Below are positions 697-7,197 of a stretch of DNA of 7,197 nucleotides, piece by piece. A program made the position numbers and the translations under genes. Numbering within the stretch: the first letter of the stretch is position 1; each line of letters starts with the position of its first letter. The stretch spans positions 1 to 7,197 of the forward strand of contig JAEOSI010000116.1 in the NCBI GenBank assembly GCA_016840425.1, given 5' to 3'. The DNA is from Candidatus Wukongarchaeum yapensis. GTDB taxonomy: Archaea; Asgardarchaeota; Wukongarchaeia; Wukongarchaeales; Wukongarchaeaceae. The notes below the pieces were generated by a model that was not told where the DNA came from, searched no databases, and worked only from the letters and a program-made list of their open reading frames with translations.

Positions 697-975
697 ATGT
701 TCTGTGAAATGTGCGGTAAATTTACAACAGTTCAGAAATTTATCTCTCCAAGATCAAAGACAATAACCCAGCTAATCTGTGTTTGTCCCAAATGTTTCAA
801 CCAGTTAGGTGAACAAATAACTGCAATTAAAATAGTCTCAGAAATTTTTGAGGGAATAAGATCAAAGATGGAGGATGTTAAACTTTTCCTTTATAACAAT
901 TCACTAGAGTTTGTAAAGGGTTATTTCACAGGAAAGCTTGTTAACTACTTACACAACTTTACCAGTACTAGATAA
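697..975 (+). CDS. Small zinc-ribbon/zinc-finger protein of unknown function (92 aa)
   Basis: CEMC at residues 3-6 and CPKC at residues 30-33 form a CxxC-x23-CxxC pattern. GGTGA SD at 686-690, 6 nt before the ATG. Confidence 0.65.
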   Translation: MFCEMCGKFTTVQKFISPRSKTITQLICVCPKCFNQLGEQITAIKIVSEIFEGIRSKMEDVKLFLYNNSLEFVKGYFTGKLVNYLHNFTSTR

Positions 976-1462: not shown

Positions 1463-1501
1463 ATGATATTGGAGGAGATGACTACACATGATATCGGAGG
1501 A
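1463..1501 (+). repeat. Direct repeat of the gene start, ATGATAT(T/C)GGAGGA, 25-nt period
   Basis: 1463-1476 ATGATATTGGAGGA and 1488-1501 ATGATATCGGAGGA, 13/14 identical. The two ATGs are in different frames. Confidence 0.75.
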
Positions 1502-2216
1502 AGAGGTATCAAAAAAAGTTATAGAAAAATTTAATTCGATAGAAGGAGTTATAGGCGTTATACGACTAAATGAAGATCAGGTAATAGATACATTTGGACT
1601 AGAATCTAGAGCTTTAGAAAATGTTCTGGGCGGTCTTGCTAAAGGAGTAAACGAGGGATTAGAAAAAGTTATTCAGAGTGATGCGGTATTTTCGGCATTT
1701 ACGGACAGATCTTTTGAATGGCCTAAAGACTCCCTTTTTCAAATAGTAAGTAGCGACGGAATTATAGGCGAAGAAATACGGGATAAAGAAAAGTTAGAGG
1801 AGTTAAAAAAGTCAGAAAATGTAATCATTATTGGCGATTGTTTCTATATAAAAAAAGATAAACTAGAAAATTGGAAGGCTGTTAAAGAAGGTTTATTCCG
1901 AGCAATATTTCCACCAATAAATTTCAACAGAGAAGTAAAAGATATTCCAGAAGTTGTGGAATGCATTGGATGCTTTACTAGCGGTCCCTGCTTTGAATAT
2001 TTAAAACTGGAGTTTGAGGGTAAAATAGATCTATCAGATCCCGGTTACGGCTTCTTTTTGGTAGGTCTCCGTTTTGACCCAGCTAAAGTCGCTTTTTCAC
2101 CAGGAACTAAGCCTAATGTCTTTTTAAAGAGCCTAAAAAGTCGCCATAAATCAACAGGAGGTCGAAGCCCAAATTTTGAAAAAGTTTATCGAACTTTTTT
2201 CTCAAATAATGTTTAA
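1488..2216 (+). CDS. Hypothetical protein (242 aa), probably a distant member of an uncharacterised archaeal family, with a C-terminal extension
   Basis: Long ORF with promoter, GGAGGA SD (1471-1476) and terminator. Segments NEGLEKV, DGIIGEEI, IFPPINF and FLVG recall a conserved archaeal protein family of unknown function that I cannot name reliably. Function not assignable. Confidence 0.75.
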   Translation: MISEEEVSKKVIEKFNSIEGVIGVIRLNEDQVIDTFGLESRALENVLGGLAKGVNEGLEKVIQSDAVFSAFTDRSFEWPKDSLFQIVSSDGIIGEEIRDKEKLEELKKSENVIIIGDCFYIKKDKLENWKAVKEGLFRAIFPPINFNREVKDIPEVVECIGCFTSGPCFEYLKLEFEGKIDLSDPGYGFFLVGLRFDPAKVAFSPGTKPNVFLKSLKSRHKSTGGRSPNFEKVYRTFFSNNV

Positions 2217-2351: not shown

Positions 2352-4070
2352 TTATTGTTTTCTTTCAATACTTTGTTGGAGGTCTGGGAATTCTTCTTCC
2401 ATCATTTTTTGTCCTCTTTTTTTATCTCCTACGTATAATGGTCCTCCAGGTCCTTGTCTCTCAACAAAAATTTTATCTATTCTAAGCACCGTTGTTGCTG
2501 CTTCAAAGGCCCCTAGTAAGATCTGTTTCTTAACGCCTAACGGTTCAAAAATTCCATTTTTCCCTCCAACATCTCCTATAGTACCTCTAAGACAATCAAA
2601 TCCAATGTTAGCTTTTCCGTTTTTATGTTCCATTTTTAGGTTTGCTAACAGCTCTTGAGCGTCAAAACCCGCATTTTTTGCTAGAGCTTCTGGTATGCAT
2701 TCAAGACTTTCAGCGAACTTTTTTACCGCTAATTGTTCCCTTTTACCAAACTTGTAAGCGTGTGATCTAAGTCTTTTTGAAAGCTCCAGTTCAACCGCTC
2801 CACCTCCAACCACCACAAAAGGGTTTTCTATTACATTTTTTACCGCATTTAACCCGTTTTTAATTATTCTGCTAACTTCTCTTGCAACAACGTCAATACC
2901 GCCTCTTACAAGGATTCCAATAGCTTTCGGATCTTCTACCCCCTCTATGAAAATCACCTCTTCATCACCAACCTTACGTCGCTCAAATAGTTCTGCTTTT
3001 CCTAAGTCCTCAGGTTTTAAGTCAAAAATGTCTTGAATCACTCTTGCCCCAGTAGCTTTAACTAATCGCTCCATATCATCAATCAAAGTCTGTTCAATAG
3101 CGGCAATTCCTCTTTTAAATAAAGGCTGATAAAACACATCATCGATCTTTTGTTGGCAAAAAATAACATTAGCCCCTGTTTCAGCAAATTTGCCCACTAT
3201 CTCTTCTATAATATCTCTCTGCTCGTTAGCGAAATCTTCTCTTTGTCCTAATTTAGTAATAACTAATTTTGTGTAACGGGCTTCAGAATGCCTGAAAAAT
3301 AAACCATCCATCGTTTTATTTATAAGCAATATTTTACAATTTTTAATCCTTTTTGGCATATGCTTATAAAAAACCTCTTTATCTATAATCAATCCATTAA
3401 CAATTTTTGTATCTGAAACGCCTCCTCCTTCCCTGCGTGTCAAACCTATATTATCCAAGTCAACTCTCCATTTTTCTCCGTCAACCTTTTCTGCGACCTG
3501 TTTTACTGCTTTTATAATCATATCGGCTAGATTTTGTTCTGAACCTTCTACTGTTTTGTTGTTCATGGTGCTGATTGCAACCCTTTTCAAAACATCATTA
3601 TCTTTATTTATGTCAACAAAGATTGCTATTTCTTTTAAAATCTCGAAAACTTCTTCTAATGCTTTTTTATAACCTTTTATAATCACTGTGGGATGAATTC
3701 CCATCTTTAAAAGTTCTTCAGCTTTTCTGAGAAGTTCACCTGCAATTATAATCACGCTTTTAGTACCATCTCCAACTTCCTCCTCCTGGGCTTCTACAAC
3801 TTTGGTAATAAACTTGGCTATAGGATGCTCAACTTGAGCTGCTTTTATGATTTTTGCCCCATAATTGCTTATAGCGGTGTCAACATCTTGGGGTCTAGGT
3901 CCATGAATGGTCATTAAAATTTTATCTAACCCGTTAGGCCCTAGAGATGTCTTTAACGCTTCTGCAAAAGCTTTAAAAGCCTCAATGTTTATTTTTCTCG
4001 CTTCTTCTCCTTTGATGTATCTGGATCCTTCAGTCCAAATCTGGAGTTTCTCGCTTTCAATCTTGGGCAT
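2352..4070 (-). CDS. ths: Group II chaperonin (thermosome) subunit, divergent paralogue (572 aa)
   Basis: Full-length colinearity with thermosome subunits: SLGPNGLDK, EHPIAK, EVGDGT, AGELLRKAEELL..GIHPT.II.GY, GANVIFCQ..ID, KATGA, LVRGG, GGGAVE, LA.NAG.D, EPL.VK, LRID. GAGGG SD at 4079-4083. Confidence 0.95.
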   Translation of the reverse strand: MPKIESEKLQIWTEGSRYIKGEEARKINIEAFKAFAEALKTSLGPNGLDKILMTIHGPRPQDVDTAISNYGAKIIKAAQVEHPIAKFITKVVEAQEEEVGDGTKSVIIIAGELLRKAEELLKMGIHPTVIIKGYKKALEEVFEILKEIAIFVDINKDNDVLKRVAISTMNNKTVEGSEQNLADMIIKAVKQVAEKVDGEKWRVDLDNIGLTRREGGGVSDTKIVNGLIIDKEVFYKHMPKRIKNCKILLINKTMDGLFFRHSEARYTKLVITKLGQREDFANEQRDIIEEIVGKFAETGANVIFCQQKIDDVFYQPLFKRGIAAIEQTLIDDMERLVKATGARVIQDIFDLKPEDLGKAELFERRKVGDEEVIFIEGVEDPKAIGILVRGGIDVVAREVSRIIKNGLNAVKNVIENPFVVVGGGAVELELSKRLRSHAYKFGKREQLAVKKFAESLECIPEALAKNAGFDAQELLANLKMEHKNGKANIGFDCLRGTIGDVGGKNGIFEPLGVKKQILLGAFEAATTVLRIDKIFVERQGPGGPLYVGDKKRGQKMMEEEFPDLQQSIERKQ

Positions 4071-4123
4071 TTTAAAATCCCTCTAGCGAATAAATTCAAC
4101 TTTTAAAATATATCTAAAATCGC

Positions 4124-4138
4124 TTTATAAATTTGTTC
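4124..4138 (-). promoter_or_regulatory. BRE + TATA box of the chaperonin gene
   Basis: Minus strand GAACAAA-TTTATAAA, TATA at 4131-4124, 54-61 nt before the ATG at 4070. Confidence 0.6.
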
Positions 4139-4140
4139 TT

Positions 4141-4500
4141 TGCTTTCAAAGATTATAAAAAGGTAATAAAAATATAATGATAAGGCAATATAAAAATTGT
4201 GACTTTAATTAACTTAGATTTAATTATGATAAATTATAACTAAGAAAAGAAAAATTCAATTAATTATAATAGAGTATCATTTATTTTACTTAAAAAGTTT
4301 ACAAATCTAAATGTTAAAATTAAAAATCGCTTTAACTTATTAATATTGGAAAAATTCTGTCTCCATAAAATATTTAATAAATATAAAATATGGTATTATT
4401 GAATTATTTCTTAGAGATTAAGCCTATAAGAAAGCCAAATTGTATTTTCCTCTATTATTTTTTAGATATAATTTATACATTTATATTTTATTAAGTAAAT
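4141..4500. other. Extremely AT-rich non-coding spacer between divergent promoters
   Basis: Hand count 58 G+C in 360 nt (16%). No ORF in the track. Confidence 0.8.
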
Positions 4501-4511
4501 CTTTTCGGGAT

Positions 4512-4528
4512 GCGGAATACTTATATAG
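4512..4528 (+). promoter_or_regulatory. BRE + TATA box of mtaC
   Basis: GCGGAATAC-TTATATAG with TATA at 4521-4528; AGGAG SD at 4586-4590; ATG at 4600. Confidence 0.6.
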
Positions 4529-4599
4529 TGCAGGCGGGTTAGAGAACTGCCGAATAGCCATAAACGGAGTGGATAAACCACCCGTAGGAGAGACCGAAA

Positions 4600-5400
4600 A
4601 TGGTAATATTGGCAGATAAAGCAAAAGATCTCAGAACCGTTTTTAGACGTTATAGTCTCGAAGCAGAACCCGCGAGCCCAGACGCCGTAATCAAGACAGG
4701 TTTACCTTCAGACCCCAATTTTTCTAAAGTAGCTAAAGGTGTAATTGATGGAGATGCAGCAGCTGTTGAATCGAGCTTGAAAGCTGCATTTGGTGCAGGA
4801 ATAGACCCATTAACAGCCATTAATGATGGCTTAATCGCTGGAATGAATGTTGTAAGTGACCTCTACGAGAAAGGCCTTTACTACTTGCCCCAAGTAATGA
4901 TCGCAGCTGATGCGATGGCAGTAGGCATAGGCGTATGTGAAGACAAGCTTGGTCACCCAGCTGAAAAGAAAGGGTTAGTAGTCACTCATGTCGCTGAAGG
5001 CGATATCCACGATATAGGAAAAGAAATAGTTAGTGCCTTACTTGCCGCTAATGGATATGAAGTTATTAACCTAGGGAGAGACGTACCCGTAGAGGATGTC
5101 GTCAACACTGTCAGAGAGAAGAAACCTGCCATGGTGACAGGAACAGCCCTTATGACAACAACAATGACCGCTTTTCCAAGAATCGCTGCCCGGCTTAAAG
5201 AGTTGGGTATTGTAATACCGTTTGTTTGCGGCGGAGGAGCCGTTACCAGAGAGTTCGTAGAAGCCTATGATTATGGAATCCACGGCGTTAAAGCCCACCA
5301 CGCTCCACATCTAGCAGCAGCAGCAGTAAAAGGCAAAAGCTGGAAAACAATACGTGAAGATTACGAAGACATCACAGGCGGATACGCCTACAAGTGGTAG
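4600..5400 (+). CDS. mtaC: Corrinoid protein of the methanol methyltransferase system, MtaC (266 aa)
   Basis: Cobalamin His-on motif HVAEGDIHDIGK (DxHxxG), LGRDVP, TGTALMTTTM, CGGGAV, helical cap (GM..V..LY..G...LP.VM..ADAM), and the MtaC-type N-terminal arm VFRRYSL. Adjacent to an MtaA-type gene. Confidence 0.92.
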   Translation: MVILADKAKDLRTVFRRYSLEAEPASPDAVIKTGLPSDPNFSKVAKGVIDGDAAAVESSLKAAFGAGIDPLTAINDGLIAGMNVVSDLYEKGLYYLPQVMIAADAMAVGIGVCEDKLGHPAEKKGLVVTHVAEGDIHDIGKEIVSALLAANGYEVINLGRDVPVEDVVNTVREKKPAMVTGTALMTTTMTAFPRIAARLKELGIVIPFVCGGGAVTREFVEAYDYGIHGVKAHHAPHLAAAAVKGKSWKTIREDYEDITGGYAYKW

Positions 5401-5503: not shown

Positions 5504-6526
5504 TTGGCTTTAAGTTCAAAAGACCGTGTTATGCTTGCTCTTAAGGGCAAGAAGGATGAGATAGACAGGACCCCTGTTACTTGTGCTAATCAGACGGTTA
5601 CCGTAGAGCAGATGGATAACCTAGGGATTTATTGGCCTGAGGGTCATAGTGATGCTGAGAAGATGGCTCAGCTGGGTATGGCCGCTTATAAGCAGTGTGG
5701 TTTGGAAGTGGCCGATGCTCCCTTTGACCAGGCTGTGGAAGCAGAGATACTGGGTTGCGAAGTGGATCTTGGGAAGAAGAAGGAGTCTATACCTAGTGTT
5801 CCCTTCCACGGGTATAAAGAGCCTGGGGATGTCCCTATCCCTGAAGACTTCCTTGAGAAGGGCAGAATACCTACAGTTTTGAAAGCGATAGAGATCATGA
5901 AAAAGGATGTTGGGGAGGAGGCCCCGGTAATCAGCCATACCAATGGTCCCTTCTCCTTGGCAGGTCATTTAGGGGAAATCAACAAAATCTTGATTATGAT
6001 CCTTAGGACGCCTGAGAAGGTTAAGGAGTTTGCAGAGATAGGGATAGACCTTATCGCTGACTACGCTAACGCTCAGTTTGACGCTGGAGCAGATGTGGTA
6101 ACTGTTGAGGACATGCTTGCCTCCACGGACATCCTAAGCCCTCAAATGTATGATGATTTTGCTGCTCCCTTCAACACCGCCTGCATTAAAAAGATTAAAG
6201 GACCCACCATCCTCCATGTGTGCGGTAAGGGAGACCTTATCGTTGAATCTATGATAGGCTCAGGGGCTACTAACATCAGCGTGGACATGGCTACAGACCT
6301 GAACAAAGCTATCCCAAAAACAAGGGGAAGATGCACAATAATGGGCAGCGTAGACACAATTAAAGCCCTCTTCCAGGGTACACCAGAAATAGTAAGAGAA
6401 CAGGTAATTAGCAACATAAGACAGGGCGTAGACCTCGTAGCACCAGGATGTGCTCTATCACCCCTTACGAAAAGCGAACTCATAAAAGCCATGGTAAACG
6501 CATCAATAGAGTACTTCGCTGAATAA
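5504..6526 (+). CDS. mtaA: Methylcobamide:CoM methyltransferase, MtaA/MtbA family (about 340 aa; start revised from 5354 to TTG 5504)
   Basis: URO-D-like family features: KDRV..ALKG....D.TPV, YWPE.H..AE.MA.L, VEAE.LGCEV, zinc-ligand motifs LHVCG and APGC. GAGGTG SD at 5492-5497 lies 6 nt before in-frame TTG 5504. The tracked 5354 start overlaps mtaC and translates the T-rich terminator. MtaA rather than MtbA is inferred from context only. Confidence 0.88.
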   Translation: MALSSKDRVMLALKGKKDEIDRTPVTCANQTVTVEQMDNLGIYWPEGHSDAEKMAQLGMAAYKQCGLEVADAPFDQAVEAEILGCEVDLGKKKESIPSVPFHGYKEPGDVPIPEDFLEKGRIPTVLKAIEIMKKDVGEEAPVISHTNGPFSLAGHLGEINKILIMILRTPEKVKEFAEIGIDLIADYANAQFDAGADVVTVEDMLASTDILSPQMYDDFAAPFNTACIKKIKGPTILHVCGKGDLIVESMIGSGATNISVDMATDLNKAIPKTRGRCTIMGSVDTIKALFQGTPEIVREQVISNIRQGVDLVAPGCALSPLTKSELIKAMVNASIEYFAE

Positions 6527-6632: not shown

Positions 6633-7197
6633 TTAGGTTTCATTTGTTTCATTTGAAAGTCCTTTTTTTAGATTATATCGAATGAAAACCTTGTCGAAAT
6701 TTACGTCTTTTTTCTGTTTTGAAGGTTTTTTCTTTTTCTTCTTTTCTTTTTCTTCTTCTAGGTTGTATCGGATGAAAACTTTGCTGAAATCTATTTTTTT
6801 GGGGGTTGATTTTTCCATTGTTTTTTCTTTTTCTTCTTTTCTTTTTCCAAATAAATCGATGGGTTTCCCTGGCGCTATTTTTAGCCCATGTTCTAGAAAA
6901 ACTTCTTTTTCTTCTTTATCTATTTCTTCCTCCTCTATTTTACTTTCTTCTATGATCTCGATTATCCGGTGACCTTTAGGGGTTATAACCCAAAACTTCA
7001 TGCTCAAAGGCTTATTTTCATCTTCCTTTTTTACGAACTCAACTAGTCCTAAATCTTCAAAAATTTTTAGGGCAGCGCTGACATTTCGAGAAGCTGTTTT
7101 AATTTTTTTCGCTATTTGGTTAACATAGCTTGGTAAAGACTGTTCTGCGAGAAATTTAAGGACTTTTCGACGGACTTTGCTTCTTTCAAGCAACTCT
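6633..7197 (-). CDS. ArsR-like winged-HTH transcriptional regulator with charged low-complexity tail; 5' end probably outside the window
   Basis: RSKVRRKVLKFL...PSYVNQIAKKI.....NVSAAL..FEDLGLVE......FWVITPKG fits an archaeal wHTH helix/wing pattern. The tracked start is TTG 7193-7191, but the frame stays open (GAG at 7196-7194) to the window edge. Confidence 0.8.
   Translation of the reverse strand, partial: ELLERSKVRRKVLKFLAEQSLPSYVNQIAKKIKTASRNVSAALKIFEDLGLVEFVKKEDENKPLSMKFWVITPKGHRIIEIIEESKIEEEEIDKEEKEVFLEHGLKIAPGKPIDLFGKRKEEKEKTMEKSTPKKIDFSKVFIRYNLEEEKEKKKKKKPSKQKKDVNFDKVFIRYNLKKGLSNETNET
6669..6790 (-). repeat. Imperfect 32-nt duplication, 90-nt period, encoding F-x-KVFIRYNL twice
   Basis: 6669-6700 versus 6759-6790: 26/32 identical. 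Encodes NFDKVFIRYNL and DFSKVFIRYNL. Confidence 0.9.

Follow-up and report, generated by a model that had tools for sequence, protein, structure and literature searches.

An EarA-type winged-helix protein beside methanol methyltransferase genes of an Asgard archaeon carries two putative mimics of the MtaC N-terminal arm

Control of a transcription factor by a trigger enzyme is known from Bacillus, where a short C-terminal tail of TnrA or GlnR docks on glutamine synthetase, an enzyme of the regulated pathway. Partner titration is known from the chaperone systems sigma-32/DnaK and HrcA/GroEL, and from FlgM/sigma-28, in which the free pool of the sequestering protein reports on assembly or folding. 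The mtaCB operons of Methanosarcina have regulators of their own, the Msr proteins of the ArsR family, which are small helix-turn-helix (HTH) proteins dedicated to methanol methyltransferase genes. Here we analyse a window of 7,197 bp, namely the whole of contig JAEOSI010000116.1 (C111) from the 2.16-Mb, 38% GC, 92%-complete assembly of the Asgard archaeon Candidatus Wukongarchaeum yapensis. It holds mta genes and, at one end, the gene of a winged-helix protein related to EarA, the euryarchaeal archaellum regulator, whose C-terminal tail contains two peptides that resemble the N-terminal arm of the corrinoid protein MtaC. This arm is described as lying in the groove between a pair of MtaB subunits within the M. 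barkeri MtaB-MtaC complex 2I2X, and MtaB is the only documented partner of the MtaC N-terminal region (PMC9842639). In the literature searched we found no earlier description of such a regulator tail, nor of an arm-bearing C-terminal tail in EarA; to judge from these searches, the arrangement has not been described before.

The likeness of this locus to the regulatory systems named above is one of analogy. As proposed here, and as with TnrA and GlnR, the C-terminal tail of a small DNA-binding protein would let an abundant enzyme of the regulated pathway set its activity; however, the present tail copies the anchor of the enzyme's own partner subunit, the protein is archaeal with an EarA-type fold, and the proposed signal is subunit occupancy (unpaired MtaB) rather than feedback-inhibited enzyme. 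With sigma-32/DnaK, HrcA/GroEL and FlgM/sigma-28 it would share the sequestration of a regulator by a protein whose free pool reports a state, whereas those systems have no subunit-anchor decoy and are unrelated to it in sequence and fold. The parallel with Msr drawn in the original prediction stands as an analogy only, because by Pfam the present protein is an EarA-like winged helix and its best match is not to the ArsR family; it is this family match (EarA best, HTH_5 marginal), and not Msr sequences, that sets the two apart, and no arm-like peptide occurs in the non-MtaC open reading frames (ORFs) of the 79 methanogen mta loci examined below. To EarA the protein is similar in its N-terminal winged-helix domain, which lies above the PF07381 cut-off, but its genomic context is one of mta, RACo, cobW, thermosome and hydantoinase genes, with no archaellum genes in the 24-kb scaffold merged below or in the syntenic loci L011 and L012. 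Finally, the peptides share with the M. barkeri arm the sequence signature and, by prediction, an MtaB contact with one peptide per protomer; they differ from it in being present twice, within the C-terminal tail of a DNA-binding protein, with neither a helical cap nor a Rossmann corrinoid domain behind them, so that the tail could not deliver cofactor and would be a decoy, not a subunit.

Two MtaC-arm-like peptides in the regulator tail

The tail encodes IDFSKVFIRYNLE (motif 1) and VNFDKVFIRYNLK (motif 2), both read from the minus strand at the positions given in Table 1, just as the original prediction had claimed; the residue numbers given there fit the ORF that starts with TTG (6633-7193), and its range of 6669-6794 is bounded by the I of motif 1 and the L of motif 2. 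Its reading of the local MtaC was likewise correct: 4624-4662 (+) gives KDLRTVFRRYSLE, which is residues 9-21 of a corrinoid protein that starts MVILADKAKDLRTVFRRYSLE. Between DFSKVFIRYNLE and DLRTVFRRYSLE 7 of 12 residues are identical, and the local MtaC arm aligns with slkkvltrynv of M. barkeri, in line with the arm type named in the original prediction.

For the profile scan we collected 79 mtaB loci, taken from methanogens, from Methanomassiliicoccales and from two Nitrososphaeria metagenome-assembled genomes (MAGs), and constructed a 17-column log-odds matrix from 47 distinct MtaC arms of other archaea, leaving out the clade under study. We refer to this clade as Hodarchaeota, since a MAG named Candidatus Hodarchaeota archaeon is the source of the regulator orthologue P0004 and of the locus L028. 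When all six-frame ORFs of the genome with 60 or more amino acids were scanned, 1,153,729 positions in total, the top score was that of motif 1, with 24.0 bits, followed by motif 2, with 21.3 bits; the best unrelated match reached 17.3 bits. The arm consensus, hydrophobic-[DN]-x-x-x-hydrophobic-[FL]-x-R-Y-[ND]-[LVI]-x-x-E, turned out to be broader than originally stated (for example, SVNFDRVLRRYDIQME or DIDPSGILVRYNVKMEK), and the likeness reaches upstream of VFxRY, as seen in VNFDKVFIRYNL against VNFDRVLRRYDI and in IDFSKVFIRYNLEEEK against IDPSGILVRYNVKMEK; motif 2 is identical at 8 of 12 residues to Methanomassiliicoccales arms such as VNFDRVLRRYDI. The organism's own MtaC arm reaches only 9.05 bits on this matrix of foreign arms. 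It is atypical in having Ser in place of the usual Asn or Asp after RY, and is less canonical than both tail peptides.

In the 79 foreign mta loci, no non-MtaC ORF reached 19 bits or more except for part of a split MtaC in L039, from a rumen methanogen MAG. This gene is divided into an 84-aa arm-bearing fragment (9217-9471, 36 bits) and the rest (9505-9999), reflecting either a frameshift or an assembly error. The peptide match is far beyond chance, and mimicry of the MtaC arm is strongly supported at the sequence level; the peptides are classed as mimics, not as members of the MtaC-arm class, because they lie in the C-terminal tail of a winged-helix protein that lacks a B12-binding domain. 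A shorter reading, FFRYNL, upstream of mtaC (4458-4475) was rejected as a relative of the motif and put down to chance, as it lies in AT-rich, promoter-like DNA and its AGA, TAT and AAT codons differ.

These data bear on the reading that the peptide is a self-association or structural element, or a chance convergence, functionally unrelated to MtaB or MtaC. In favour of it are the shortness of the motif, an alternating hydrophobic pattern that could give an oligomerising beta-strand, and the negative covariation test reported below. Yet both copies head the genome-wide ranking on a matrix built without this clade, the same motif closes the C-terminus of relatives from Methermicoccaceae, no other non-MtaC protein of the 79 loci matches comparably once the split MtaC is set apart, and the docking controls score 0.00; we therefore hold this reading to be improbable.

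Conservation of the tail was evaluated in five orthologues of the regulator, of 194-196 amino acids and 75-97% identical overall. The cores DF.KVFIRY (motif 1) and NFDKV.IRY (motif 2) are invariant among them, the linker varies, the motif codons show only synonymous differences between species, and between the gene's two KVFIRYNL copies there are four synonymous substitutions and no non-synonymous ones. Thus, the invariant cores and the purely synonymous codon changes indicate that the tail is under purifying selection at the level of the peptide, and that it is not the product of a recent DNA duplication or of low-complexity noise. The same data speak to the idea of an inert tail, left over from a duplicated 5' fragment of mtaC that became fused to the regulator gene. 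Since MtaC N-termini are the only other place where the arm occurs, it may plausibly have been captured from the 5' sequence of mtaC, but an inert relic is hard to believe in when two copies with only synonymous differences are conserved across species and phyla, and when the linker diverges and the motifs do not. The part of the gene coding for the Lys/Glu-rich tail also contains an exact 28-nt direct repeat (6725-6752 and 6820-6847), possibly prone to slippage; as a source of the peptide repeat it is ruled out, being purine-rich low-complexity sequence with a spacing of 95 nt and out of frame.

With regard to the rest of the protein, its ORF runs off the contig at the 5' end, and contig C56, which shares 144 identical bases with the end of the window, supplies the true start (MEDIPVEILE...), adding nine codons to the 187 in the window; the length of the regulator is corrected to 196 amino acids because of this overlap. 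The hidden Markov model of PF07381 (EarA) gives 34.9 bits over residues 3-81 (cut-off 22, E 1.3e-08), and the HTH_5 match is weaker (22.7 bits, cut-off also 22). PF07381 is precomputed for the orthologues too, which NCBI names EarA family protein. By Pfam, then, the protein has a bona fide EarA-type DNA-binding fold at its N-terminus, in which the recognition-helix region is strongly conserved. An AlphaFold2 (AF2) model of the full regulator was poor, with a mean predicted local distance difference test (pLDDT) of 38, and is usable for topology only, namely, helix-helix-helix-helix-strand-strand-helix.

Table 1. Features of the 7,197-bp window; coordinates are those of the window.
Feature	Coordinates	Strand	Basis or remark
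Gene of EarA-like winged-helix protein with C-terminal tail	6633..7197	-	ORF list, Pfam, contig overlap, orthologues
Winged-helix DNA-binding domain, approximately residues 1-90 of the window ORF	6927..7196	-	Pfam match to residues 3-81
Conserved middle segment LEHGLKIAPGKPIDLFGKRK	6837..6896	-	nearly invariant among orthologues
Putative arm mimic 1, IDFSKVFIRYNLE	6756..6794	-	translation; 24.0 bits, genome rank 1
Lys/Glu-rich linker between the mimics, 17 residues	6705..6755	-	composition varies, PSKQKK conserved
Putative arm mimic 2, VNFDKVFIRYNLK	6666..6704	-	translation; 21.3 bits, genome rank 2
mtaC, methanol corrinoid protein	4600..5400	+	E 1.5e-66 to 2I2X_B; Pfam B12-binding, B12-binding_2
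Genuine MtaC N-terminal arm	4624-4662	+	aligned with the arm of 2I2X chain B
mtaA-like methylcobamide methyltransferase, URO-D family	5531..6526	+	Pfam PF01208, E 6.5e-70
mtaB, 5' part, 95 codons	1..285	-	Pfam PF12176 (MtaB N-terminus)
Thermosome gene	2352-4070	-	
242-aa ORF	1488-2216	+	no Pfam family
Small zinc-finger-like ORF	697-975	+	
Thermosome-mtaC intergenic region, 529 bp, candidate target promoter	4071..4599	.	89% mean column identity, two species

Predicted docking of the tail on the MtaB dimer

The complex prediction was made with two copies of MtaB (the L012 orthologue, 32-row alignment) and residues 121-196 of the regulator orthologue P0001 (5-row alignment). The MtaB dimer with the tail gave ipSAE values of 0.76, 0.76 and 0.79, as compared with 0.00 for the best of three controls; the mark of the tool is reached by 58 of 80 solved complexes and by 2 of 110 mismatched pairs. 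At least 73% of the contacts were common to the runs, and the pLDDT of the partner was at least 52. Confident contacts of the tail fall on P0001 residues 144-158 and 174-187, that is, exactly on motif 1 and motif 2, and the Lys/Glu linker between them is absent from these contacts; LEHGLKIAPGKPIDLFGKRK lies mostly outside the construct, and the part of it that was included makes no confident contacts. Motif 1 is placed on protomer 2 and motif 2 on protomer 1, each against the same MtaB residues, namely, 38-39, 75-80, 117-119, 233-236, 338-346, 358-363 and 414-417. Docking of the tail on MtaB is therefore supported in silico. As for the original claim of bivalent docking at the MtaC-arm site, the bivalent part is what the prediction returned, with the two motifs on equivalent patches of the two MtaB protomers, a candidate counterpart of the arm groove of 2I2X. 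Canonical MtaB proteins conserve four of the patch residues (P80, D360, Y362 and R363) to 90% or more, and these are changed in the arm-less MtaB-like proteins of the Asgard genus g21, a weak indication.

The same docking evidence fits a different use of the tail, in which the protein would be a placeholder, an assembly factor or an inhibitor that caps the arm sites of MtaB until cofactor-loaded MtaC takes over, with the winged helix serving for dimerisation or in some other role. The two arms per chain match the two sites of the MtaB dimer, and the cluster contains cofactor-handling genes, namely, cobW, RACo and a second B12-binding protein. However, by Pfam the N-terminal domain is an EarA-type DNA-binding fold with a strongly conserved recognition-helix region, and to cap MtaB stoichiometrically the protein would have to be expressed at a level like that of MtaB, which is generally atypical for proteins of this type. 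We regard a capping role as rather unlikely, and continue with docking as a property of a transcription factor.

Gene order, relatives and the separation of mtaB from mtaC

Positions 1-144 and 7054-7197 of the window overlap the start of contig C84 and the end of C56, respectively, by exactly 144 identical bases, and no other contig shares the window ends; therefore, the assembly divides both mtaB and the regulator gene between contigs. In the merged C56-C111-C84 scaffold, of 24 kb, the genes come in the order cobW, RACo/RamA, a 219-aa B12-binding protein, the winged-helix gene (on the plus strand of the scaffold), mtaA and mtaC (on the opposite strand, facing the regulator), the thermosome gene, the 242-aa ORF, the small zinc-finger ORF, mtaB and hydantoinase. 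Exactly the same gene order is present on two long contigs of related organisms, L011 and L012. The 219-aa protein between RACo and the regulator (C56:7946-8515, L008; L011:8826-9485) is without an MtaC-type arm.

The identity of MtaB, MtaC and MtaA follows from orthology of the neighbouring genes to the 2I2X chains and the URO-D family. First, the corrinoid protein is by homology a true MtaC orthologue. Second, the likely start of mtaA is ATG 5531, giving 331 amino acids as compared with the 340-341 of the L011 and L012 gene calls; the longest ORF, from GTG 5354, was rejected, as it overlaps mtaC and has an implausible hydrophobic N-terminus. Third, the remainder of mtaB lies on C84, for a full length of 462 amino acids, and a full MtaB orthologue matches 2I2X_A with an E value of 5.6e-138, with E164, C220 and C269 invariant in the alignment. 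The thermosome gene, the 242-aa ORF and the zinc-finger-like ORF form an odd insertion between mtaB and mtaC, which is syntenic in L011 and L012. The 242-aa ORF and mtaC have nearly the same leader before their ATG (AGGAGAGACCG..AATG; 1449-1468 and 4586-4605), which may be a common ribosome-binding context or a co-regulation signal. The spacer at 4071-4599 is unusually well kept for AT-rich DNA, with its 89% identity to an L011 species whose proteins are 78-84% identical.

MtaB was found in 4 of 400 Asgard genomes, namely, two of the same genus and two of g21 with divergent, arm-less systems, and McrA was not found in this 92%-complete genome; therefore, the gene content suggests a methanol methyltransferase system that is rare and apparently not methanogenic. 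Mer-like genes of the luciferase family lie near the cluster in L011 and L012. The g21 loci were set aside as uninformative, given that their proteins are 36-37% identical to MtaB and have no arm-bearing MtaC or regulator nearby. The tailed regulator itself is confined among these 400 genomes to its own genus, where both of two genomes have it.

A HMMER search of 1.84 billion representative proteins returned as full-length matches only the regulator's own cluster. The next match was P0006 (E 1.6e-13), joined by the relatives P0015 and P0016, all of them short: P0006 and P0015 have 105 amino acids, and P0016 is a 76-aa call whose ORF reaches further upstream in L127. The source of P0015 is named Methermicoccaceae archaeon by NCBI. 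The winged-helix domain of these Methermicoccaceae relatives is 45% identical to the Hodarchaeota one, and each has one arm at its end, ..NIPVVRRYDYEIE, ..NIPVFKRYDIETE or ..NIPIVKRYDVERE (12.6, 16.0 and 19.7 bits), with LVKNIPVVRRYDYEIENR, LVKNIPVFKRYDIETERA or LVKNIPIVKRYDVERESA as the terminal arm-like peptides of the group. More distant winged-helix relatives (P0007-P0014) are without the motif. No third arm-bearing clade appeared in a word-index search (five matches) or in the HMMER search; a metagenome scan for a further clade gave only Methermicoccaceae-like loci, and 301 genomes of the Methanosarcina class gave one match.

The genome with a single-arm regulator, G403, contains the MtaC that is the closest relative of the Hodarchaeota MtaC (59% identity, 306 bits), and because of this the sequences suggest that the mta cluster and the regulator travelled together between the clades. 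In its family of three genomes, G403 is the sole one with an arm-bearing regulator and the sole one with MtaB, the other two genomes being small and possibly incomplete. The original prediction had raised the case of the motif occurring in regulators of mtaB-less genomes; arm-bearing relatives were found only in MtaB-bearing ones. G403 has four equal-scoring MtaB matches (C7:54-1448, C9:54-1448, C13:112-1506 and C14:53261-54655), three of them at contig starts, and only one arm-bearing MtaC; the four matches represent multi-copy mtaB or an assembly repeat.

The Methermicoccaceae regulator genes follow hydantoinase-cobW-RACo, the accessory genes of the Hodarchaeota cluster. This neighbourhood invites the reading that the arms bind another protein that recognises the MtaC arm, such as the corrinoid activase RACo/RamA, in which case what the regulator reports would be activation or cofactor status. 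The regulator gene of either clade adjoins RACo or lies one gene away from it, together with cobW, and that of Methermicoccaceae is not adjacent to mtaB. Nevertheless, no partner other than MtaB is documented for the N-terminal region of MtaC, and docking on MtaB passed by a wide margin; we consider RACo/RamA an unlikely target and keep MtaB as the favoured one.

The arrangement of the two partner genes sets both clades apart from other archaea. Elsewhere mtaC lies directly upstream of mtaB on the same strand, as scored by script for 82 of 90 mtaB genes and by inspection for five more, with two others in the order mtaB-mtaC. In contrast, mtaB of the Hodarchaeota loci is some 4.3 kb from mtaC and on the other strand, and in G403 mtaB is divergent from mtaA-mtaC. 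Gene order thus makes mtaB a transcription unit separate from mtaC in both clades with arm-bearing regulators. Since the two genes are not co-transcribed there, a sensor of unpaired MtaB would make sense exactly where co-transcription no longer secures stoichiometry, an argument drawn from two lineages only.

A candidate sensor of unpaired MtaB

Based on these results, we propose that the protein is an EarA-family winged-helix regulator of the mta cluster whose tail arms dock on MtaC-free MtaB, so that its activity would follow the MtaB:MtaC balance, a proposal to which we give slightly better than even chances. The disordered Lys/Glu-rich tail would carry the N-terminal anchor peptide of MtaC twice, as a decoy, each copy filling the MtaC-arm site on one protomer of the MtaB dimer. 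MtaB without MtaC would capture the regulator, and MtaC would displace the tail from MtaB because it has, besides the arm, a large additional interface. The pool of unpaired MtaB would in this way set the DNA-binding activity of a scarce regulator, and expression of the separately transcribed mtaC-mtaA and/or mtaB units would be coupled to the MtaB:MtaC balance. In a simpler version, the regulator would report the presence of MtaB. Binding, competition with MtaC, the sign of regulation, the target promoters and the sensor logic are those parts of the scheme that we infer.

Several points weigh against this proposal. The evidence for binding of the tail to MtaB comes entirely from prediction, namely from a single complex prediction with our own alignments, in a dimer-plus-peptide format unlike that of the tool's calibration. 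Moreover, the docking pass may reflect memory of the MtaC arm of 2I2X rather than independent physics: as this homologous complex is solved, the pass means that the model treats the peptides like the MtaC arm, and is not proof of binding. The predicted patch is given by residue number, and covariation between MtaC arm and MtaB, evaluated on 85 pairs, showed no enrichment at the patch (Mann-Whitney p = 0.61), although MtaB column 414 ranked highest. The comparative base is narrow, with two clades of about five and about three distinct sequences; the co-occurrence counts are tiny and the genomes incomplete; and the Methermicoccaceae regulator gene adjoins RACo and not mtaB. Lastly, no operator or target promoter was identified, no search for operators or motifs having been made in AT-rich DNA that is too noisy with two species.

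In its broader form, the proposal is that decoy anchor peptides let a transcription factor sense the state of assembly of an enzyme with two subunits, and that this provides a feedback balancing mtaB and mtaC, shared between Asgard archaea and Methermicoccaceae, probably by transfer with the mta cluster. We put this forward tentatively, as a possibility that falls somewhat short of even odds. A practical consequence concerns annotation: these genes are probably misnamed by the automatic label 'archaellum operon activator EarA'. What the N-terminal arm of MtaC does becomes directly testable with peptides, and the search for subunit-anchor peptides in regulator tails offers a general recipe. If true, the scheme would represent a simple, sequence-readable way of sensing unpaired enzyme subunits, in which the docking peptide of the partner is placed on the regulator, and it would give a first mechanistic lead on the regulation of methanol methyltransferase outside Methanosarcina, in a non-methanogenic Asgard archaeon with a rare MtaB.

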